From an uncultured Clostridia bacterium (GTDB lineage Bacteria; Bacillota; Clostridia; Christensenellales; Aristaeellaceae), in assembly GCA_947167215.1 (NCBI GenBank), contig CAMVHE010000005.1, positions 1,905 to 65,904 on the forward strand: a stretch of DNA of 64,000 nt, read 5' to 3'. The translations under genes were made by a program, and so were the position numbers. The notes beneath the pieces were generated by a model, which did not search any database, was not told the origin of the DNA, and worked only from the letters and a program-made list of their open reading frames with translations. Below are positions 35,865-45,278 of this stretch, piece after piece (within the stretch, counting starts at the first letter, position 1; each line of letters begins with the position of its first letter).

Positions 35865-36131
35865 AGAATACCTTCCTTAACTGATTCAAAGCCACAGTCG
35901 GAGGTTCATTGACAAGAGTATTCGTTTAATCCCGGATGATCGGGGTTTGATTCTTAAAAAGTTCCCAACAAATAGGAACTTCTAAAAGAGGTTATTCGTT
36001 CCGTATCTTGATAATCCTGCTTAGATAGAATCGACCTCGCTATGTTTTTCCCCCAGATCCTCATATCTGCAATCCAAAAACTACAATAGCCGCTGGTACA
36101 GTTTTCCCGATCATACCAGCGGCTGCTTTAT

Positions 36132-36290
36132 TTACAGGGTATTGATGATTTCTTCCTGGTAAGCTCTGTGCATCATACCCCATCTGCCGATGGGATGCTG
36201 ATCAGAATCATCAATTGTCAGATCGGGATAGTACATGTCATCTTCACCCAGCGTATAGGTTTCTCCGAGTTTCTCGAACAACGATTTCAT
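36132..36290 (-). pseudogene. N-terminal fragment (52 aa) of a TnpV-like transposon protein
   Basis: Not in the ORF track. MKSLFEKLGETYTLGEDDMYYPDLTIDDSDQHPIGRWGMMHRAYQEEIINTL resembles the first ~50 residues of ~120-aa TnpV proteins of Tn4451-type elements (…YxPDL…IGxWGxxRxxYLKEH…). GGAGGA lies 8 nt upstream. Confidence 0.4.
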
Positions 36291-36486
36291 TGAAATTTCC
36301 TCCATAATTCAATATTGACCAATCCAGTACGCAGATGCCTTTTCTGTCTGTTTTTTGGCTAATACTGTTTTATGGATACCCGGACGACGGGCGGCTTCTT
36401 TATTACCGAATTGAACAAACGTCGGTTCATGCCGGAGAAGGTTATTTTTTCCAAATCGGATCCTTCTTGCGGCTGCCACTGGCTCT

Positions 36487-37143
36487 TCAGTCAGGCAGGA
36501 GCATTTTCCTTGCGGCGAGGACTCCCAGCCGGGGACTGGTCAGTACCGGGACCGGCATATCGGACAGATAGGGCTCCAGGGCAAGCATGGATCCCTGGGC
36601 AAGCACCACGACATCATTGCGGGATGCTGCTGCGCGGACAGCATCCAGGACCATGGCATTATGCTTTTCCGGTCCTTCGGTCATCAGTACGTCGAGCGCA
36701 CCATCAATCAGCACGCGTTCGAGCTGAATCTCTTTCCCGATCTTTGCCGCCTCCCTCTCCACCAGCCGGCTGGAGGGACCCATGGTGGACCCCACTGTGG
36801 CGACTACGGCAATGCGCGTCCCCATTGCAACGGCCTTGGCAGCCATGGGTTCATCCACTTTAAGGACAGGGACGGCGACGGTCTTCGCTGCAATATCCGC
36901 TGCTTCCCCCACCGAAGAGCACTGATTGAAAATCAGGTCCGCACCGGATTGTTCCGCCAGCTGATAATAGCAGCACATGCGCTTAATCAGGAAAGGCGTC
37001 GGGTGTCCTACCGTTTTTACTTCGCGGAGCAGACTGTCATCAATGATGTTCATGATTTCCGCTTCCGGAATCAGTTCGCTGAAAAGCTTCGTCAGATCCT
37101 GGATGGATACGAGACTGGTGTGAATAACTGCGATTTTCTTCAT
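36487..37143 (-). CDS. Asp/Glu/hydantoin racemase-family protein
   Basis: 218 aa. MKKIAVIHTS…IFNQCSSVGEA…VVVLAQGSM… has the two-lobed Asp/Glu racemase layout. Only the first catalytic Cys position (Cys75) is occupied. Confidence 0.6.
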   Translation of the reverse strand: MKKIAVIHTSLVSIQDLTKLFSELIPEAEIMNIIDDSLLREVKTVGHPTPFLIKRMCCYYQLAEQSGADLIFNQCSSVGEAADIAAKTVAVPVLKVDEPMAAKAVAMGTRIAVVATVGSTMGPSSRLVEREAAKIGKEIQLERVLIDGALDVLMTEGPEKHNAMVLDAVRAAASRNDVVVLAQGSMLALEPYLSDMPVPVLTSPRLGVLAARKMLLPD

Positions 37144-37336
37144 GATCCTGTCCTCCTTCTCCTCTTTCTCCGTTTGGAACGATTTTCTCCGGACACATGG
37201 AAGATTTCATCCTCCGCTCCGGTATCGGGCAGTTTTTCCGTTTTCTCCCCGCGAATCACCGGCAAAAGGCTCAGATGCCCCGCACTGCTTCAAAAGTGCT
37301 TTCCAGCCGAAACCCTTCGACCATTTCCGCATCCTG

Positions 37337-38011
37337 CTAAACCGCACCGAAGAATTCCTCTTCCAGCATCAGGCACAGTGCATGCCATACCGGAAGATGC
37401 AGTTCCTGGATAAGGTGCGCCCGGTCTGCGGGAACCGCAATCAGAACGTCGCTGCGTTCCCCGACGTCTCTCCCTTCGGAGCCCGTCATGCCGATGACCT
37501 TCATCTTTTTGGCATGCGCTGCAGTACATGCCAGCACAACATTTCTGGATTTTCCGGATGTGGACAGTGCCAGCAGGACGTCATGTTCACGGCCGTAGCC
37601 CCATACCTGCTGGGCAAAGACCATTTCCGCACTAACATCATTAATGTAAGCGGTCATCAGTGCTGTTTCCGCCCCCAGGGAAATTGCAGGGAGGGCACCC
37701 TGCAGCCTGTATGCCATCTGGCTTCCATATACCGGATCCAGCTCTTTCAGTCTCCGGGCATCTGCCTCGGGAATTTTTCTCGGCAGAATAAAGGATTTCA
37801 TCAGTTCCCCGACAATATGCTGGCCGTCCGCACAGCTTCCCCCGTTTCCGCAGATCAGCAGCTTTCCCCCCTGAGAATAGCTTTCGATCAGCATTGCTCC
37901 TGCTGCATAAATCGAATTGCGGCAGGAACCCAGCACCGGATAACGTTCAAGAAGATCCGCAAGAATTGCGGATGATGCGCCTTTCAATACAATCATCTCC
38001 CCCAAAATCAT
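37337..38011 (-). CDS. SIS-domain protein, GmhA (sedoheptulose-7-phosphate isomerase)/DiaA-like
   Basis: GGKLLICGNGGSCADGQHIVGEL and LALSTSGKSRNV motifs. Confidence 0.7.
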   Translation of the reverse strand: MILGEMIVLKGASSAILADLLERYPVLGSCRNSIYAAGAMLIESYSQGGKLLICGNGGSCADGQHIVGELMKSFILPRKIPEADARRLKELDPVYGSQMAYRLQGALPAISLGAETALMTAYINDVSAEMVFAQQVWGYGREHDVLLALSTSGKSRNVVLACTAAHAKKMKVIGMTGSEGRDVGERSDVLIAVPADRAHLIQELHLPVWHALCLMLEEEFFGAV

Positions 38012-38111
38012 TTACGCTCTCTGCGTATCTGCCCTTCTTCTTTCCCTGTTCCTTTCAGACAGAAAAATATCAAAAAGGGTCCCTCTGAATACGCAGAAGG
38101 ACCCAGTTTTC

Positions 38112-38711
38112 TTATTCCGCACACCCCAGCCGCTTCTGCAGAAATGCCAGGAGGGCAGGATAATCCACCTTTTCGAGGTCCGTCATATCCAGAACAAAGG
38201 AATCTCCCAAGTGGATGAAATAATCCTTTTCCGCACAATCCCTCGTATATGCTTCAAGGGAAAGCCTCGGAGCAATCACCTGTTCCCCATCCTTGTGATA
38301 AGTGCTGCAAAGATGGCCCGGATGCCGTGAAGACTGTTTATCACGGTTTTCGGAGCGCTGCCACAGTGCTTCCGGTTTTCCCGCCAGGACAACGGTATAC
38401 GGAGTATAGCCATATTTTGCAATCAGCGATTTCAGCATCGCTACGTGCTTTCTGCAGAAAGGATATTCGATCAGCCAGTCTGCTCCTCCTGCCATACGCT
38501 CACCCAACTGCTGCCAGAAGTCCTGCAGACTGCGTTCATTTACCCGGCCTTTCTCTTCCATGCCGTCAAAGCCCAGCAGATCCCACCACTTTTCCTTCCA
38601 CTCATCATAGGATAGAACGGTGAAGGAAGGAAAGGATTTGCTGATCATGCCGGAAATATACGACTTGCCGGAACCCGGATAGCCGGTAACAATCAATAGA
38701 CGCTTTGCCAT
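38112..38711 (-). CDS. P-loop (Walker A) small-molecule kinase-like protein, unknown specificity
   Basis: From the ATG at 38711: MAKRLLIVTGYPGSGKSY… The start is 1 nt after the stop of the upstream SIS gene (TGATATG). Confidence 0.55.
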   Translation of the reverse strand: MAKRLLIVTGYPGSGKSYISGMISKSFPSFTVLSYDEWKEKWWDLLGFDGMEEKGRVNERSLQDFWQQLGERMAGGADWLIEYPFCRKHVAMLKSLIAKYGYTPYTVVLAGKPEALWQRSENRDKQSSRHPGHLCSTYHKDGEQVIAPRLSLEAYTRDCAEKDYFIHLGDSFVLDMTDLEKVDYPALLAFLQKRLGCAE

Positions 38712-38712
38712 A

Positions 38713-39300
38713 TCACATATTATGTCCGGGAATATCCCACAGCCTCTGTACGACATTCATCAGCATATGATTCAGGATCAGATGCACGTCTTCCACGATC
38801 TGCATATTATTGACATTTACATGGAATACCACATCTGCAATTTCCCGGATCTTTCCGCCGGAATAACCGCATACGGCTATGGTCCGGATGCCCTGCTCCT
38901 TTGCATAAGAAAGTGCATTGACCACATTCATGCTGTTGCCGCTTCCGCTGATGCCTATGACCACGTCTCCCTTGCGGAGCCTCCCCCGCAGCTGGAACCG
39001 GAACATTTCATCATAGCTGATATCATTGGCAATGGACAGCATGGTTGCCACATTATCCGTCAGGCTGTAAAAGCGGAATTTCTTTTCAACGTATTCGGAA
39101 ATGCCTTTATTGAAGTCATTTGCCATATGGGAGGCAGTGCTGGCACTGCCTCCATTTCCGCAGACATAAATGGTTCCTTCTGCCTCATAGGCCTCCAGAA
39201 TCGTGTCAAGCACCTGTCTCACCTGCTGCTGGTCAACCGCCTGGAGCGTTCGCATTTCCAGGTCCAGGTACTCACGGATATAGCGGTCGGTATCTTTCAT
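38713..39300 (-). CDS. SIS-domain protein, GmhA-like (second copy)
   Basis: IYVCGNGGSASTASHMANDF and IGISGSGNSMNV motifs. Confidence 0.7.
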   Translation of the reverse strand: MKDTDRYIREYLDLEMRTLQAVDQQQVRQVLDTILEAYEAEGTIYVCGNGGSASTASHMANDFNKGISEYVEKKFRFYSLTDNVATMLSIANDISYDEMFRFQLRGRLRKGDVVIGISGSGNSMNVVNALSYAKEQGIRTIAVCGYSGGKIREIADVVFHVNVNNMQIVEDVHLILNHMLMNVVQRLWDIPGHNM

Positions 39301-39315
39301 AGAACTCCTCTTTCC

Positions 39316-40389
39316 TCAGATAGCGTGGGTATCCGCAATGTCCAGATGCAGGAATGCAGTCTCTCCGCTCTTGAAAATATGTTTGTTCTTTGGATTGTTT
39401 TCATGTACCGTAAAACGTCTTCCATCAATCTGGAGCTCATAGAGCTGGTAGGAACCCATGAATGTGGACAGCGTTACCGTTGCTTCCAGCAGGCCGCTTT
39501 CCCGAACGGAACAGGCCTCTGGACGGACGATGACCGTGCATTTTTCTCCGGGCTCAAACCTACGGTCGCTGGGAATGTTCTTCAGCTGCTTGCCCATTGT
39601 CTCAATGGTCAGGCCTTCTTTTCCCTGTGAAATGACCGTACCGTAAAGCATATTGGCCGTACCGATAAAGTTGGCCGAGAATTCGCTGTTGGGCGAATAG
39701 TAGACCTCCTCCGGGGAGCCCATCTGCTCAATCCTGCCGTCTTTCAGAATAACGATCCGGTCCGACATGCTCATCGCTTCCGCCTGGTCATGGGTCACAT
39801 AAACCGCCGTAATCCCCACTTCCCGCTGAATCCTGCGGATCTCCGTGCGCATCTGAATGCGCAGATTGGCGTCCAGGTTGGAGAGAGGTTCATCAAAAAG
39901 CAACACGCCCGGCTCCATGACCAGCGCGCGCGCCAGCGCCACCCGCTGCTGCTGTCCGCCGGAAATTTCATTGGTATGACGTTTTTCCAGTCCCTTGAGC
40001 CCCGTCATTTCCAGAATATTCATCACTTTCCGGTTGATCTCGGAACTCGAGAGTTTTTTGATCTTGAGTCCGTAAGAGATGTTGTCATAAATATTCATGT
40101 TGGGGAACAGGGCATAGGTCTGGAAAACCATTGCCGTATCCCGTTTGTCCGGAGACAGGTAGCGGATGGACTGGTCTCCCAGGCGGATATCGCCGCCGGT
40201 AGGCTTTTCAAAGCCCGCAATCATTCGCAGCGTTGTGGTTTTTCCGCAGCCGGACGGTCCCAGCAGGGTAACAAATTCGCCCGGCGCAATATCCATGGAA
40301 ACATGATCAACGGCATGAACTGGCGCACCGCCATGTTTATTGGGGTATACCTTTTCCAAGTCAATGAGGGATAATCCCTTGGCACTCAT
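39316..40389 (-). CDS. ABC transporter ATP-binding protein (FbpC/PotA/AfuC type)
   Basis: Walker A GPSGCGKTT, signature SGGQQQRVALAR, Walker B LLFDEPLS, and a C-terminal TOBE-like regulatory domain. Confidence 0.85.
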   Translation of the reverse strand: MSAKGLSLIDLEKVYPNKHGGAPVHAVDHVSMDIAPGEFVTLLGPSGCGKTTTLRMIAGFEKPTGGDIRLGDQSIRYLSPDKRDTAMVFQTYALFPNMNIYDNISYGLKIKKLSSSEINRKVMNILEMTGLKGLEKRHTNEISGGQQQRVALARALVMEPGVLLFDEPLSNLDANLRIQMRTEIRRIQREVGITAVYVTHDQAEAMSMSDRIVILKDGRIEQMGSPEEVYYSPNSEFSANFIGTANMLYGTVISQGKEGLTIETMGKQLKNIPSDRRFEPGEKCTVIVRPEACSVRESGLLEATVTLSTFMGSYQLYELQIDGRRFTVHENNPKNKHIFKSGETAFLHLDIADTHAI

Positions 40390-40418
40390 AGTCGTCCTCC
40401 ATTTTCATTCTCATGACG

Positions 40419-42110
40419 TTACTGTTTGAACAGATCAATCTTCTCGCCGGAGCTGCGACCAAGCCGGTTCAGAATCGCATTCATCAGGCCAACGACGATA
40501 AACACGATAATCATCAGCAGCGTGGAAAGCACAGACGCATAACCGAACTGTCCCTTATCCACGTGCTGCATGACACGAACTGTCAGCAGGTTATAGTTGG
40601 CAGAAACCAGGAAGATGACCGCACTGATGGCCGTCATGCTCTTGATGAAGCTGAAAACCAGACCGGTATAGAAAGCAGGACGGATCAGCGGCAGTGTTAC
40701 CGATGTGAAAACCTTTGTGGAGTGTGCTCCGAGGTCTGCCGCGGCTTCTTCAATGCTCGGATCAATCTGCCGGAGTGCCGACATGCCGGAGCGTACACCC
40801 ACGGGCAGACGGGTCATCACCAGGACGATTACCAGAATCCACATGGTATTGGTCAGTACCAGCGGCGGCGTATTATACGCCAGAATGTATCCGAGGCCGA
40901 ATACGGTTCCGGGTACTGCCATTCCCAGCATGGAAACATATTCCACCAGCCGGCGTCCGACAAAGCGCTTGCGTACCACAAGGAACGCAATCACCATGGC
41001 CAGTATGCCGCCGATGGGCGCCACCAGCAGGGAGATTCCCAGCGTATCATAAATGGATTTAATATTCTTGGACAGACCGAGCGCAAATTTCCAGTTATCC
41101 AGCACCAGGGTGTAATCTGCTCCCCAGGTCTTGAAGAAAGAGGAAAGAACCACGAAAACATAGAAAAGAAGCACAATCGCCGAGATCAGCAGGCACAGCA
41201 CATTGGTGGTAATCATGATTCCCTTGTCATCAATCATCTCACGCACCCGGCTTGCCTTGCCCGTCAGCGTCACATAGGACCGTTTATCCAGAATGGCTTT
41301 CTGTACAACAAACACCGCTACCGTGACCAGCAGCAGGATGGTCGCTATGGCCGTGCCTGCACTCTGGTTGTAGTTGCCGATTGCCTGAATATATATTTGC
41401 GAGGCCAGCGTTTTATAGCCGCCGCCCAGAATCATCGGATTGGAGAAGTCCGTCACCGACTCAATAAAGGAGAGAAGAAACACATTGGCAAGTCCCGAAG
41501 CCAGCATGGGAATCTGTACCGTCACAAAAACCCGCAGACGGCTTGCACCCATATTCCGTGCCGCTTCCTCCATGGAAACGTCAAAGTTCTCCAGAAGCCC
41601 GTCCAGTGTCATGGCTGCAATCGGGAAAAACACCAGTGTCTGTACGATGACAAGACCAACGTAGCCGTAAATATTGAAATTCTTGATTCCCAGCAGGGAA
41701 TAGGTAATGAGCCCGCGGCGTCCAAGCAGCGTGATGGCAGCAAAAGCCAGTACGAACGGCGGGGAAATGATAGGAAGGATTTCAATAACGCTGAAGAGTT
41801 TTTTAAAGGGACTTTTGACGCATTGTTTGGTATAGGCAAACAGAAATCCCACAATGGTAGAAGTCAGTCCGACGACGGTTCCCAGTCGAATGGTATTCCA
41901 GAAAGCAGTTTTGAAGCCCGAATCCCCGAAGATGCTAAAATAGGAAGAAAGAGTGAGTTTTCCCGTATTGTCAGTAAAGCTGCCCTTCAGGATGCAGAAT
42001 AGCGGATAAGCGATGAACATCAGCAGCACAACAATGACTGCAATAATGATCAGCAGCAGGAGCGGATCCTGGAAAAGGCGTCTGCTCTCATTTTCCTCAG
42101 CCTTTTGCAT
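40419..42110 (-). CDS. ABC transporter permease with duplicated transmembrane domain (FbpB/AfuB/ThiP type)
   Basis: 563 aa, about 12 TM segments in two repeats, each with an EAA-like loop (MEEAARNMGASRL; IEEAAADLGAHS). Confidence 0.8.
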   Translation of the reverse strand: MQKAEENESRRLFQDPLLLLIIIAVIVVLLMFIAYPLFCILKGSFTDNTGKLTLSSYFSIFGDSGFKTAFWNTIRLGTVVGLTSTIVGFLFAYTKQCVKSPFKKLFSVIEILPIISPPFVLAFAAITLLGRRGLITYSLLGIKNFNIYGYVGLVIVQTLVFFPIAAMTLDGLLENFDVSMEEAARNMGASRLRVFVTVQIPMLASGLANVFLLSFIESVTDFSNPMILGGGYKTLASQIYIQAIGNYNQSAGTAIATILLLVTVAVFVVQKAILDKRSYVTLTGKASRVREMIDDKGIMITTNVLCLLISAIVLLFYVFVVLSSFFKTWGADYTLVLDNWKFALGLSKNIKSIYDTLGISLLVAPIGGILAMVIAFLVVRKRFVGRRLVEYVSMLGMAVPGTVFGLGYILAYNTPPLVLTNTMWILVIVLVMTRLPVGVRSGMSALRQIDPSIEEAAADLGAHSTKVFTSVTLPLIRPAFYTGLVFSFIKSMTAISAVIFLVSANYNLLTVRVMQHVDKGQFGYASVLSTLLMIIVFIVVGLMNAILNRLGRSSGEKIDLFKQ

Positions 42111-42154
42111 TTATGGGAAGCCTCCTTCCGTTTTACATTGTCTGAATATGGATT

Positions 42155-42184
42155 GCGCCGGACCCACCAAGGCGAATCCGGCGC
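42155..42184 (-). other. intercistronic stem-loop after the binding-protein gene
   Basis: GCGCCGGA…TCCGGCGC, an 8-bp stem with a 14-nt loop and no U-tract. Confidence 0.35.
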
Positions 42185-42230
42185 TTCAAAATAATTACTT
42201 TACAGTGTATTCCTTACTGCGGTCCGAAAA

Positions 42231-43238
42231 TCAACGGCCGGTCAGCTTGGTCCACTTCTCAGTGAATTCTGCACGCTTTTCGCCAGCCCATGCGGTATTG
42301 TATTCGATGGTCTTGGCATCAGCGATACGGGCAACAGCTTCCGAAGGAACTGCACCGGGAGCGGTCAGGAACTGCAGAGCGCCATAATCCTTGTAGAGGT
42401 TCTGGCAGTCAGCGGTAAGTGCCCAGTCATAGAACTTCTTGGCGGCTTCCTGATCGGGGCCGTTGGCAATGATAGCCATAGCGCCGGTCTCATAGCCGGT
42501 GCCTTCTGCCGGTACATTGACGGTCAGCAGATCCTGATATCCATTCTGCTGCTGAGTGATTGCGTCATGGCAGAAGCAGATGCCTACAGCAACTTCACCC
42601 GCGATAACGGAAGTAATGCAGGCGCCGCCGCGTTCGGTGTACTGCAGGACGTTCTTGTCGAGCTTCTGCATGAAGTTGAAGCCCTCTTCCTCGCCCATCA
42701 GCTGCAGCACGGTGGCAAGAATAACATAACCCGTGGAAGATGCGGCAGGAGATGCCAGCATGATTTCGCCTTCCAGCTTCGGATCCAGCAGGTCTTCCCA
42801 GGAATCAGGCGCTTCGATGCCCAGTTCGGCAAGACGTTCATTGTTGCAGACAAAGCCTACATAACCGATATAAACACCAGTCCAGTAGTTGTCGGGATCC
42901 TTATACTTGCTCTCGATAGGAGCCGCATTCGGAGATTCATACTGAAGCAGGAGTCCTTCATTCTTGGCAGTGATGAAAGGATCAGCGGGGCCGCCAAACC
43001 AGACGGAGCAGGTTGCATTTTCATTCTCGTTCTTGACACGGTTCAGAATTTCGCCGCCGCCAAGCACGACATAGTTGGTCTTGATGCCGCTTACTTCTTC
43101 AAAGCGCTTGCACAGGCCATCGGTTTCGTCCTCGTACACCGCAGAGTAGATGGTCAGCTCGTCATCGGCAGCAAGCGCTCCGCAGAACAGAGCAGAGACC
43201 ATCATCAGTGCCATCAGGCATGCAATGAGTTTCTTCAT
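42231..43238 (-). CDS. family-1 extracellular solute-binding protein (FbpA/AfuA/ThiB type)
   Basis: Signal peptide MKKLIACLMALMMVSALFCGALA, then LTIYSAVYEDETDGLCKRFEEVSGIKTNYVVLGGGEILNRV… typical of Fe3+/thiamine/sugar-phosphate binding proteins. Confidence 0.75.
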   Translation of the reverse strand: MKKLIACLMALMMVSALFCGALAADDELTIYSAVYEDETDGLCKRFEEVSGIKTNYVVLGGGEILNRVKNENENATCSVWFGGPADPFITAKNEGLLLQYESPNAAPIESKYKDPDNYWTGVYIGYVGFVCNNERLAELGIEAPDSWEDLLDPKLEGEIMLASPAASSTGYVILATVLQLMGEEEGFNFMQKLDKNVLQYTERGGACITSVIAGEVAVGICFCHDAITQQQNGYQDLLTVNVPAEGTGYETGAMAIIANGPDQEAAKKFYDWALTADCQNLYKDYGALQFLTAPGAVPSEAVARIADAKTIEYNTAWAGEKRAEFTEKWTKLTGR

Positions 43239-43286
43239 GGGGTTTCCTCCTTTGAATAATTCAATCTATCTTAAGCGTTCCAGCGC

Positions 43287-44111
43287 TTAAAACCGTACCA
43301 GATCAATCTTCTTACGGATAGTATCTGCCATGGCATCATTGCATCGAATCATAAGCTCACGCAAAGATTCATCCGGCTCCGCCTCTCCAAAGACTTCCTT
43401 CGCTCTGCGTACCCAGGACACATTCAGCTCTGTGCCGAAGTTCAGCTTCAGCATGCCAAGGCGGATACAGGTGCGCACATCCTCCTCCCGGACTCCGGTT
43501 CCTCCATGCAGAACCAGCGGGGTATCCACTTTTTCGTGAATCTGGCGGAGTACGTCAAGATTGATGTTCGTCTTTGCCTTATATTGCCCATGGTGGGTGC
43601 CAATGCCCACTGCCAGGGCATCAACGCCTGTCTCCTTCACAAACACCACTGCATCGTCAGGGTCCGTATAGGGATAGCTCTCAATAATCTTCCCGCGCCC
43701 CACGATACCCAGTTCCGCCTCAATGGATGCGCCTGCTTCCCGGGCCATCTTCACCGCTTTCAGTGTGTTGGCGATGTTTTCTTCCAGCGGAAGCCTGGAG
43801 CCGTCATACATGACGGAAGAAAAACCGCCTTCCAGTGCTCCCTCAATATCTTCCAGCTTGCCCGCATGGTCCAGATGCAGGGCAACCGGAATCTCCAGTC
43901 CCTCGGCCACATCCTGGACCACCTTGGTCAGCAGCCGGAAACCGATATACTTCGCTGTGGAAACCGATACCTGCAGAATGACGGGGCAGTCTTTCTCTGC
44001 CGCGGTCCTTGCCATCATCGGAACCACTTCCAGTGCGTGAATATTAAACGCCGGAACACCCTTCCCATCTTTTTTTGCCTGTGCCAGCATGGGAATCATC
44101 GTTGAATACAT
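43287..44111 (-). CDS. class II ketose-bisphosphate aldolase (FbaA/KbaY/GatY family)
   Basis: 274 aa with PVALHLDHAG, VLHGGTGV and the overall FBA_II layout. Confidence 0.8.
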   Translation of the reverse strand: MYSTMIPMLAQAKKDGKGVPAFNIHALEVVPMMARTAAEKDCPVILQVSVSTAKYIGFRLLTKVVQDVAEGLEIPVALHLDHAGKLEDIEGALEGGFSSVMYDGSRLPLEENIANTLKAVKMAREAGASIEAELGIVGRGKIIESYPYTDPDDAVVFVKETGVDALAVGIGTHHGQYKAKTNINLDVLRQIHEKVDTPLVLHGGTGVREEDVRTCIRLGMLKLNFGTELNVSWVRRAKEVFGEAEPDESLRELMIRCNDAMADTIRKKIDLVRF

Positions 44112-44144
44112 GCATTGTCCTCCAAACTATTTAAATGCGTTTAT

Positions 44145-44173
44145 ATCTTATCCTTCTTTGTGTATTCTGTCAA
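44145..44173 (-). promoter_or_regulatory. candidate promoter of the aldolase/ABC/SIS operon
   Basis: Minus strand reads TTGACA (44168-44173), a 17-nt spacer, then TAAGAT (44145-44150), about 30 nt upstream of the GGAGGA RBS. Confidence 0.35.
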
Positions 44174-44342
44174 TATAAATCATGCTATAATTGTAGAATC
44201 GTGCCTTCTGACACGTTGCTGTTTGGGTATCTTCCTTATATTCACGCTCCGGTAAATGTTCTTTTTTGATGAAGATTCCACCTTTTTTCTCCCCGGAACT
44301 GTCTTTTTCCGAATTCCAGAAGAAACAGTACGGTCAGGACCA

Positions 44343-45278
44343 TCAGATTGCCGTGAAACCATCTCTGGCGTAGCAGGCTGCACCATAAAGGACATTCTGG
44401 TCCATCAGCTGGCATTGCTGTATCTCATAATGCCCTCTGGCTGAATCAAATACATAGGCCTCGGTATAACGGCGGATTGGTGCAAGCAGCACCTCTCCCA
44501 GATTCGCCACTCCGCCCCCGATGGCAATCCTCTGCGGTGCCAGCAGCGTAATCAGATTGGCCAGCGCCAGGCCGTACACTCTGGCATCTTCCTCGAGGAA
44601 ACGGAGAGCAAAAGTATCTTCCTTTTCGGCCGCCTCCCGGAGATGGTAGGTACTCAGCGTTTCCCGGCGTCCGTCGCAGAGTTTCATCAGGAGAGAATGG
44701 TCCGGCGTCTCCGCCCGCAGTCTTTTCGTCATGGCTACCCCGCTGCAGAATTTTTCGAGCCGGATAACATTTCCCGTTACCGGGTCCTGGACCACGGTAT
44801 TTCCAAAATATGAGGCGCCATACCCTACGCCGTCATACACCTTGCCTCCGATGAACATGGCCCCGCCAATTCCTGTGCCGATATTGGTATAAAAGAAACT
44901 GCGGATATCCTTTCCGCTTCCCATCATCAGTTCCGCATAGCCGCCGCATACCGTATCATTGACAATCACTGCCGGAACATGGAAATGGTCTTCCATCCAC
45001 CCCTTGAGGTTCATATCATTCCACCCGGGAACCTGAACGGAAAAAAGCACCTTTCCAGTCCTGCTGTCCACAATGCCGCCAAATCCGACACCGATCGCCT
45101 CAACCGGATATTCCGCCAGCAATTCCGGCAGTTGCAAAGCAATCCACGAAAGCACGGTCTGCGCACCGTCCACCAGAGGAAATTTCCCGGTCTTCTGCTT
45201 CAGAATCCGTCCATCTTCTTCGTGAATGGCGATCTGCTGTTTGGTACCCCCGATTTCTATGGAAGCATATCTCTTCAT
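44343..45278 (-). CDS. ROK-family protein lacking the canonical zinc motif (sugar kinase-like)
   Basis: From the ATG at 45278: MKRYASIEIGGTKQQIAI…, VGFGGIVD, NDTVCGGYAE, TNIGTGIGGA. There is no CxCGxxGCxE block. The ORF-track start at 45620 overlaps lplA and is rejected. Confidence 0.65.
   Translation of the reverse strand: MKRYASIEIGGTKQQIAIHEEDGRILKQKTGKFPLVDGAQTVLSWIALQLPELLAEYPVEAIGVGFGGIVDSRTGKVLFSVQVPGWNDMNLKGWMEDHFHVPAVIVNDTVCGGYAELMMGSGKDIRSFFYTNIGTGIGGAMFIGGKVYDGVGYGASYFGNTVVQDPVTGNVIRLEKFCSGVAMTKRLRAETPDHSLLMKLCDGRRETLSTYHLREAAEKEDTFALRFLEEDARVYGLALANLITLLAPQRIAIGGGVANLGEVLLAPIRRYTEAYVFDSARGHYEIQQCQLMDQNVLYGAACYARDGFTAI

Follow-up and report, generated by a model that had tools for sequence, protein, structure and literature searches.

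AfuABC is a hexose- and heptose-phosphate ATP-binding cassette (ABC) importer of Actinobacillus pleuropneumoniae and Citrobacter rodentium (Sit et al. 2015, PMC4546632; PDB 4r72-4r75), which is composed of a binding protein, a fused double permease and a TOBE-domain ATPase, and stands alone, feeding ordinary glycolysis. GmhA (PDB 2x3y, 2xbl, 1x92, 2i22; TIGR00441) is a sedoheptulose-7-phosphate isomerase with a single SIS_2 domain of approximately 190 amino acids that is encoded beside ADP- or GDP-heptose genes. In the GatYZ, KbaYZ/AgaY and AgaS routes, as well as in the sedoheptulose-1,7-bisphosphate bypass of the pentose phosphate pathway by phosphofructokinase (PFK) and a class II aldolase, a ketose phosphate receives a further phosphate group before an aldolase of PF01116 splits it, and the Aga route begins with an SIS enzyme. 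Here we analyzed a stretch of 64,000 nucleotides (the window) from an uncultured Clostridia bacterium (contig CAMVHE010000005.1 of assembly GCA_947167215.1), which contains a minus-strand cassette where an AfuABC-type transporter of the same three-part architecture is adjoined by its own two GmhA-like isomerases (SIS-1 and SIS-2), a P-loop kinase and a class II ketose-bisphosphate aldolase. The SIS genes of this cassette have the transporter and the aldolase as neighbors instead of the heptose genes.

The AfuABC importer, GmhA, the class II aldolases and the isomerase-kinase-aldolase logic are already well known, whereas the combination of these elements in a mobile form, the binding pocket peculiar to the cassette, the use of a P-loop kinase family where PfkA or PfkB would be expected, and a sister system of the phosphotransferase system (PTS) type appear to be undescribed. 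Literature searches yielded no description of this cassette, of a heptose-phosphate catabolic cluster or of a sugar kinase belonging to PF13671. We assign a probability of roughly 0.55 to the reading that the cassette is a self-contained mobile catabolic unit for an extracellular phosphorylated sugar.

Conservation and spread of the cassette

The kinase is rare. A word-indexed search collected its homologues in 23 protein clusters, and a pattern-based scan of a collection of 185,579 species detected the kinase in approximately 20 of them, which is a lower bound. No homologue was found in 400 other genomes sampled across the phylum. When the gene neighborhoods were compared, the kinase proved to be part of this cassette in almost all of its loci, typically in the order of aldolase, binding protein, permease, ATPase, SIS and kinase. 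The arrangement is not a matter of chance, because the same order is seen in approximately 20 independent genomes from three phyla with unrelated flanking genes. The full order was present in Clostridia metagenome-assembled genomes, Christensenellales, Frisingicoccus and other Lachnospiraceae, Oscillibacter and Dysosmobacter (Oscillospiraceae), and Fretibacterium (Synergistota). Treponema socranskii ATCC 35536, Treponema sp. Marseille-Q4130, Ornithospirochaeta and a further metagenome lineage (locus L070) lacked an adjacent aldolase; their order was binding protein, permease, ATPase, SIS and kinase, and some of them had a second SIS. Kinase and aldolase occurred together in 16 of the 18 complete genome loci.

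The SIS content differed from locus to locus: some have only SIS-1, some only a near-canonical GmhA (L017 and L021), and some both. The invariant core therefore consists of the transporter, at least one GmhA-like SIS protein and the kinase, with a second SIS as an optional addition. The initial annotation, made from the window only, had regarded all seven genes as one unit. The core of transporter, SIS and kinase agreed with this view, whereas SIS-2 lies behind a terminator-like hairpin and is dispensable in relatives, and the aldolase is missing in the spirochaete versions. It had also raised the possibility that the SIS and kinase genes were a remnant of lipopolysaccharide or heptose biosynthesis not transcribed together with the transporter; instead, these genes turned out to be the steadiest partners of the transporter across three phyla. 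Heptose-activation genes (HldA/HddA kinase, GmhB, nucleotidyltransferase) did not accompany the SIS genes in any of the cassette contexts.

The flanking genes differ in every lineage, and the genes downstream of the kinase in the relatives are mutually unrelated. The aldolase and the binding protein of Fretibacterium share 84% and 76% identity, respectively, with those of the window. Such high identity across phyla, together with the differing flanks, indicates horizontal spread, and these comparisons point to a horizontally mobile unit distributed over Bacillota, Synergistota and Spirochaetota. The close relatives of the host genome, which has a size of 3.8 Mb, came from rumen and gut samples.

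Regulators of the ROK or RpiR type accompany the cassette in seven other loci, with regulator-sized ROK genes (404-412 amino acids) located divergently upstream in L012, L013, L014, L016, L018 and L070, and an RpiR gene encoding helix-turn-helix and SIS domains located likewise in L015. Two features were seen past the cassette in Fretibacterium. One is a 51-residue fragment (L005:12273-12425, the same as L022) with 53% identity to the C-terminus of the kinase, which lies 2 kb past the intact kinase and is probably a remnant of a second kinase copy. The other, present in two genomes (L005:10321-11541 and L026:8374-9594), is a convergent gene directly past the cassette encoding a STAS domain fused to an APH-type phosphotransferase.

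Properties of the encoded proteins

The solved structures most similar to the binding protein were those of AfuA (4r72-4r75, E 1e-55), followed by 8x1a and, in third place, P5PA (6wce, E 3e-50). Structures of the FbpA type matched at E 1e-13 to 1e-3, at least 40 orders of magnitude more weakly than AfuA. The FbpA proteins of H. influenzae and Neisseria coordinate iron by an adjacent Tyr-Tyr pair together with His and Glu, and no Tyr-Tyr dipeptide was found in the 335 residues of the binding protein. The suggestion of the initial annotation that this protein resembles AfuA rather than FbpA was therefore borne out, both by these comparisons and by the retention of the sugar-binding triad.

In AfuA, H205, D206 and E229 are essential for the binding of sugar phosphates and were used by the authors to define homologues, while S37 and T150 hold the phosphate (PMC4546632). 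The alignment placed H224, D225 and E250 of the window protein at the triad, T169 at T150, and G61 at S37. The phosphate site of AfuA also involves Ser/Thr residues at the N-termini of three helices, and Arg203 took the position of the Ser in the third of them. The triad was invariant in the 17 cassette orthologues, whose overall identity goes down to 65%, and so were G60-G62, E63 and R203, save one Gly-to-Cys substitution in L020. The comparison set for these residues consisted of 29 other AfuA-like proteins, drawn from 45 of the 400 Bacillota genomes sampled. Among the 29 proteins, the H-D and E motif was common, whereas G60-G62 (Ser in the others) and Arg203 (Ser in AfuA and the others) were found only in the cassette proteins. 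Judged from these residues, the binding protein is best regarded as a subfamily of its own within the AfuA sugar-phosphate branch, and its ligand need not be that of AfuA. The initial annotation had pointed to the substrates of AfuA; since the anion pocket differs, the specificity of AfuA is not simply transferable to this transporter. AfuA is moreover a periplasmic protein of Gram-negative bacteria, whereas the Clostridia binding protein carries a signal sequence. The AfuA-like proteins of the 45 sampled Bacillota genomes (L035-L063) displayed several pocket signatures, some without the His-Asp pair (FTPAF, PDTGE), and the AfuA-like family probably covers several ligands beyond those known.

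Apart from SIS-1 and SIS-2, the host genome gave no strong GmhA-like (SIS_2) match. SIS-1 matched GmhA structures at E 1e-23 and TIGR00441 with 122.5 bits, and SIS-2 matched them at E 8e-33 in two stretches and with 138.5 bits. The near-canonical GmhA forms, found as the sole SIS in L017 and L021 (197 bits) and also in L027 (193 bits), were likewise below the TIGR00441 cut-off of 209.45 bits. The zinc-binding and catalytic residues of GmhA are reportedly His64, Glu68, Gln175 and His183 in the numbering of B. pseudomallei, an assignment said to go back to Harmer in 2010. Both proteins of the window keep the metal histidines of GmhA and a Ser/Thr-rich phosphate loop. SIS-2 retains the whole set (H65, E69, Q202 and H210, with the loop STSGKS) and differs from GmhA by an insertion of approximately 27 residues at about residues 79-105. 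SIS-1 has H58, D62, E170 and H178 at these positions, with D62 replacing the Glu of GmhA and E170 replacing its Gln; all four residues are invariant among the 17 orthologues of SIS-1, and its phosphate loop is SGSGNS.

The aldolase passed only the subfamily model TIGR00167 (238 bits against 215.6) and stayed below the equivalog cut-offs for fructose-bisphosphate aldolase (FBA, TIGR01859; 257 against 343), GatY (246 against 383) and KbaY (180 against 542). The motifs HLDH (D81, H82), GTHHG and HGGTG are kept, with the zinc ligands and the catalytic Asp intact. AgaY was among the best solved relatives (E 2.5e-46), and R251 of the cassette aldolase aligned with R257 of AgaY. This arginine is invariant in the cassette orthologues, and its equivalent was kept in four of five further aldolases, taken from PTS-type and outlying loci; the divergent aldolase of L023 does not align at this position. 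In fructose-bisphosphate aldolases the equivalent arginine binds the distal phosphate, while SqiA has Ala257 (PMC10665668). As AgaY and SqiA share their numbering at D82, H83, E134, H180, H208 and N230, Arg251 sits where the class II sulfofructose-phosphate (SFP) aldolases have Ala257. Because the distal-phosphate arginine is kept, the alignment favors a bisphosphate as the substrate of the aldolase. When compared with the tagatose, galactitol and N-acetylgalactosamine routes, the cassette differs not only in its aldolase falling below the cut-offs of the known types but also in its kinase, which has a nucleoside monophosphate (NMP) kinase fold of the P-loop type instead of being PfkA, PfkB or ROK, in the lack of a GatZ/KbaZ partner, and in the proposed entry of the substrate in phosphorylated form by an ABC importer.

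Hidden Markov model classification of the kinase gave only generic P-loop models of Pfam, AAA_33 (30 bits), AAA_18 (33 bits) and Zeta_toxin (23 bits), which were barely above the cut-offs. No NCBIfam model matched, and neither Pfam nor NCBIfam indicated membership in the PfkA, PfkB, ROK, FGGY or GHMP families, in agreement with the initial description of a P-loop kinase other than PfkB and ROK. The AlphaFold model, built from 21 homologues, had a predicted local distance difference test score (pLDDT) of 94.5. Foldseek identified the putative kinase Caur_3907 of Chloroflexus aurantiacus, a structural genomics target (PDB 2rhm), as the nearest fold with a template modeling (TM) score of 0.78-0.82, followed by adenylate kinases, gluconokinase, polynucleotide kinase and the kinase domain of PFK-2. 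The same protein was also the closest by sequence (E 2e-8), although it is only 21-22% identical and is uncharacterized. We know of no sugar context for it. The predicted fold of the cassette kinase is of the NMP-kinase-like P-loop type. Its invariant residues include D36, E40, E82-F85, H89, R119, R123, R129, H133, Y138, H139, K162 and Y164.

A profile search of 1.8 billion representative proteins detected 53 clusters at E <= 1e-30 and 788 at E <= 1e-10. The family includes fusions with a PfkB sugar kinase (P0050) and with aldolases of the DeoC/LacD type (P0056, P0057 and P0071). Members with 28-35% identity and the same invariant motifs were found in operons of the PTS type in Niallia circulans NBRC 13626, Fannyhessea vaginae DSM 15829 and several metagenome contigs. 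These operons encode EIIA, EIIB and EIIC-GAT, a small TPR-like protein (approximately 130-160 amino acids), a PF01116 aldolase and the kinase, with a PRD/EIIA regulator; at some of these loci the kinase is itself joined to PfkB or to an aldolase of the DeoC/LacD type. Among the four to seven paralogues per genome, the cassette aldolase and the aldolases of the PTS-type operons were reciprocal best hits. The host genome itself has a kinase paralogue with 28% identity (G000:C17:40718-41338, minus strand; L033:9719-10339), which heads a separate sugar ABC operon comprising the kinase, two permeases and a binding protein of 503 amino acids, and the kinase family may serve several sugar systems in this genome. 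The kinase family is repeatedly coupled to sugar-phosphate delivery systems and to one clade of aldolases; the PTS, like the AfuABC-type importer, delivers a sugar phosphate.

A role as a zeta toxin or anti-phage kinase was also considered and rejected, as no match was obtained with PADLOC and the kinase gene was always located within a transport and metabolic operon. The names zeta toxin and UDP-N-acetylglucosamine kinase attached to related entries in the ESM Atlas are automatic labels and were given no weight.

Organization of the locus in the window

All seven minus-strand open reading frames listed in the initial annotation were recovered at their positions, in the same order and in the same families (Table 1). 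The candidate promoter proposed upstream of the aldolase was also found, as a consensus match only, and the aldolase ATG is preceded at 7 nucleotides by a GGAGG ribosome-binding site. SIS-1 starts 15 nucleotides past the ATPase stop. The close spacing of SIS-1 and the kinase likewise proved correct: the kinase ATG (38711-38709) is located 1 nucleotide past the SIS-1 TGA (38715-38713), which defines the extent of the kinase gene given in Table 1, and the kinase is translationally coupled to SIS-1.

Table 1. Positions of the cassette genes, signals and neighboring gene in the window, and of the sister operons in other genomes
Feature	Position	Strand	Remarks
ROK-family protein, 425 aa	44343-45620	minus	N-terminal extension of ~117 residues; ROK domain at residues 118-419
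Promoter-like site	44145-44173	minus	TTGACA-17-TAAGAT; consensus match only
Class II ketose-bisphosphate aldolase, 274 aa	43287-44111	minus	PF01116, E 1e-85, 288 bits
AfuA-like solute-binding protein, 335 aa	42231-43238	minus	N-terminal signal sequence; SBP_bac_6/11/8/1
Fused double ABC permease, 563 aa	40419-42110	minus	AfuB/PhnU2/ThiP architecture; two BPD_transp_1 domains; TIGR03262 aligned over residues 21-550
ABC ATPase, 357 aa	39316-40389	minus	ABC_tran and C-terminal TOBE_2
SIS-1, divergent GmhA-like isomerase, 195 aa	38713-39300	minus	SIS_2, E 1e-20
P-loop kinase, 199 aa	38112-38711	minus	Walker A motif GYPGSGKS
Terminator-like hairpin	38077-38104	minus	GGGTCC...GGGACCC followed by TTTTT; 11 pairs, 7 of them G-C
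SIS-2, GmhA-like isomerase, 224 aa	37337-38011	minus	SIS_2; all GmhA metal and catalytic residues kept
PTS-type sister operons	L024:4797-10612; L025:5383-10639; L028; L030-L032		L024, Niallia circulans NBRC 13626; L025, Fannyhessea vaginae DSM 15829

A strong hairpin resembling an intrinsic terminator, a feature absent from the initial annotation, lies directly 3' of the kinase stop and separates the kinase from SIS-2. In some relatives the gap between the kinase and SIS-2 is just 3-40 nucleotides, too short for such a hairpin. No Rfam element, including riboswitches, was detected across 36000-45000 of the window. In the gap between the upstream ROK gene and the cassette promoter (44174-44342), no convincing terminator was found. 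Since a strong terminator is lacking there, it is possible that the cassette is also transcribed by read-through from the large upstream sugar and aldehyde-oxidation operon, which ends with the ROK gene. The ROK protein, encoded on the same strand directly upstream, is possibly the regulator of the cassette, a link made uncertain by its identity of only approximately 25% to the ROK proteins of the other loci. Downstream of SIS-2 there is a gene with an Asp/Glu-racemase fold (36487-37143); tblastn found no copy of it accompanying the cassette in the other loci, and it is probably a local neighbor rather than a cassette member.

Metatranscriptome assemblies contained near-identical contigs over the aldolase, binding-protein, ATPase and kinase-end regions in four animal-gut runs (three bovine) from three studies, and one of the contigs spans the junction of aldolase and binding protein. 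This coverage is patchy, contig-based and possibly derived from DNA, and is uninformative about the uncovered parts, while the deep coverage at 39754-40381 is due to other organisms with conserved ABC ATPase motifs. These contigs give a weak hint that the cassette is expressed.

Proposed route and alternative explanations

The order of uptake, isomerization, second phosphorylation and aldol cleavage outlined in the initial annotation remains the best-supported reading of the cassette, given the AfuA-like binding protein and the ties of the kinase to aldolases by neighborhood and fusion, with the individual steps proposed as follows. Homology and the sugar triad suggest that the importer would take in a cyclic hexose or heptose monophosphate, and one or two metal-dependent SIS enzymes of the GmhA type would convert the aldose phosphate into the ketose phosphate. 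The P-loop kinase would then phosphorylate the ketose phosphate once more, C1 being the most likely position, as judged only from the gene context and the fusions. Finally, the class II aldolase would split the ketose-1,n-bisphosphate into dihydroxyacetone phosphate and either glyceraldehyde 3-phosphate (from a hexose) or erythrose 4-phosphate (from a heptose). In the cassettes lacking an aldolase of their own, a housekeeping class II aldolase would perform this cleavage. Because both products are central metabolites, the cassette could work in unrelated genomes without further dedicated genes. The absence of an isomerase from the PTS-type relatives fits the same route, since a free ketose would be phosphorylated on entry, and the route would also account for the sugar-responsive regulators flanking the cassette.

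For the substrate, we lean, at somewhat less than even odds, toward the pair of heptose 7-phosphate and sedoheptulose 7-phosphate (S7P), metabolized via sedoheptulose 1,7-bisphosphate. A heptose is favored because GmhA-like proteins are the only isomerases used and a near-canonical GmhA suffices in some cassettes. Housekeeping class II FBA is able to cleave sedoheptulose bisphosphate, and the aldolase-less spirochaete versions could rely on it. AfuA binds S7P (PMC4546632), which agrees with a heptose substrate. An unusual hexose phosphate, for example one of the tagatose, psicose or mannose series, is roughly as likely, because the aldolase is equally similar to tagatose-bisphosphate aldolases and there is no obvious environmental source of heptose 7-phosphate. 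A missing transaldolase was considered as an argument for an S7P kinase and was discarded, as all carriers tested have a TAL/FSA gene and the criterion does not discriminate.

Several observations weigh against a catabolic unit of this kind. The anion pocket of the binding protein is remodeled in all cassette orthologues, with S37 of AfuA replaced by Gly, S184 by Arg203 and SSGTAY by ASSTGY, and could accommodate a different anionic group such as a sulfonate or a carboxylate. SIS-1 has Asp62 in place of the catalytic Glu of GmhA. The kinase has no characterized relative, and its generic fold predicts no substrate, so that it is a guess which position is phosphorylated and to which class the substrate belongs. 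The spirochaete cassettes lack the aldolase. A PfkB kinase is also present in some of the PTS-type operons, where the P-loop kinase is therefore not the sole second kinase and might act at another step. Finally, the host genome has seven class II (PF01116) aldolases, one of them with an internal TAG, five PFK-family genes and a transaldolase, and other carriers are similar; the cassette would therefore duplicate host enzymes if its substrate were S7P or a common hexose phosphate. Seven PF01116 aldolases and five PFKs are an unusually large ketose-bisphosphate set for a 3.8-Mb genome.

The alternative that survives best, although we regard it as improbable, is that the P-loop protein is not a ketose-phosphate 1-kinase but an anomeric aldose-phosphate kinase (HldA/HddA-like, for glycan synthesis or signaling), a kinase for a cleavage product, or a protein of regulatory or ATP-handling function, the aldolase being just a frequent neighbor. 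It accords with the conserved core of transporter, SIS and kinase and the missing aldolase in Treponema, Ornithospirochaeta and L070, with the PfkB kinase of some PTS-type operons and with a fold that gives no specificity. The succession of SIS and kinase also mirrors the GmhA-HldA order of heptose activation, but no GmhB-type phosphatase, nucleotidyltransferase or glycosyltransferase was found with the cassette in the contexts examined. The import of a sugar phosphate for biosynthesis would be hard to rationalize, as cells make S7P themselves. The kinase was associated with the aldolase not only in most of the complete genome loci but again, with orthologous aldolases, in the PTS-type operons, and kinase-aldolase fusion proteins exist.

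Less probable still is a route of the same isomerase, 1-kinase and aldolase logic for a sugar with a distal anion other than phosphate, namely sulfoquinovose, which would constitute a third, non-homologous Embden-Meyerhof-Parnas-type sulfoglycolysis (sulfo-EMP), or a uronate in a manner like YdjH/YdjI. The known sulfo-EMP and sulfo-EMP2 pathways (YihS/YihV/YihT; SqiA, PMC10665668) also process an anionic C6 sugar by isomerase, 1-kinase and aldolase, non-homologous enzyme sets are known among them, and class II SFP aldolases belong to PF01116. One kinase would be enough for such substrates, the Ser-to-Gly replacements and the invariant Arg203 in the pocket would suit another anion, and the carriers live in the rumen or gut, an environment rich in plant sulfolipid. 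The C3 sulfonate or acid aldehyde formed could be processed by the CoA-acylating aldehyde dehydrogenase and the ADP-forming ligase of the neighboring operon, but that operon is absent from the other contexts. The aldolase retains R251 at the position of Ala257 in SqiA and the other class II SFP aldolases. SIS domains bind phosphosugars, whereas the known sulfoquinovose isomerases belong to PF07221 and PF02952 (the sulfoerythrose isomerase SqwI to PF02502). Sulfoquinovosidase, sulfolactaldehyde reductase or dehydrogenase, and sulfonate exporter genes accompanied the cassette in none of approximately 20 contexts. GH31 genes are present in the host genome, none of them near the cassette.

It is very improbable that the transporter imports iron(III), thiamine, pyridoxal 5-phosphate or 2-aminoethylphosphonate, in line with its automatic annotations, beside unrelated sugar enzymes: although the best NCBIfam models were those of the putative PhnS2/PhnU2/PhnT2 set, all below their cut-offs, thiamine- and iron-binding proteins gave weak matches and P5PA ranked third among the solved relatives, the transporter-SIS-kinase order is conserved in three phyla, the AfuA triad is kept, FbpA-type matches are far weaker, the Tyr-Tyr pair of FbpA is absent, no phosphonate-degrading genes are present, and P5PA was found by its authors only in Pasteurellaceae.

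Returning to the catabolic reading, there is a reasonable chance that the cassette hides a new family of sugar-phosphate kinases together with a new substrate. A broader proposal is much more tentative, and we hold it to be rather unlikely in its entirety: that the P-loop proteins are an unrecognized sugar-phosphate kinase family, non-homologous to the PfkA, PfkB, ROK, FGGY and GHMP kinases, supplying a ketose bisphosphate to a dedicated clade of class II aldolases, and that this pair forms a new heptose or rare-hexose route, delivered with the phosphorylated sugar by an AfuABC-type importer or with the free sugar by a PTS, which horizontal transfer has carried into anaerobes of the gut, rumen and mouth in three or more phyla.

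Sugar phosphates are mostly seen as intracellular compounds, and AfuABC showed that gut bacteria feed on them. The present cassette hints at a mobile route, dedicated to a single phosphosugar, in rumen, gut and oral anaerobes. Cultured carriers include Treponema socranskii ATCC 35536 for the ABC form, and Niallia circulans NBRC 13626 and Fannyhessea vaginae DSM 15829 for the PTS form. The kinase family is now annotated only as "AAA family ATPase", and a confirmed route would give a first function to approximately 50 close clusters and several hundred distant ones. If true, the cassette may represent a new catabolic pathway for heptose or rare-hexose phosphates.

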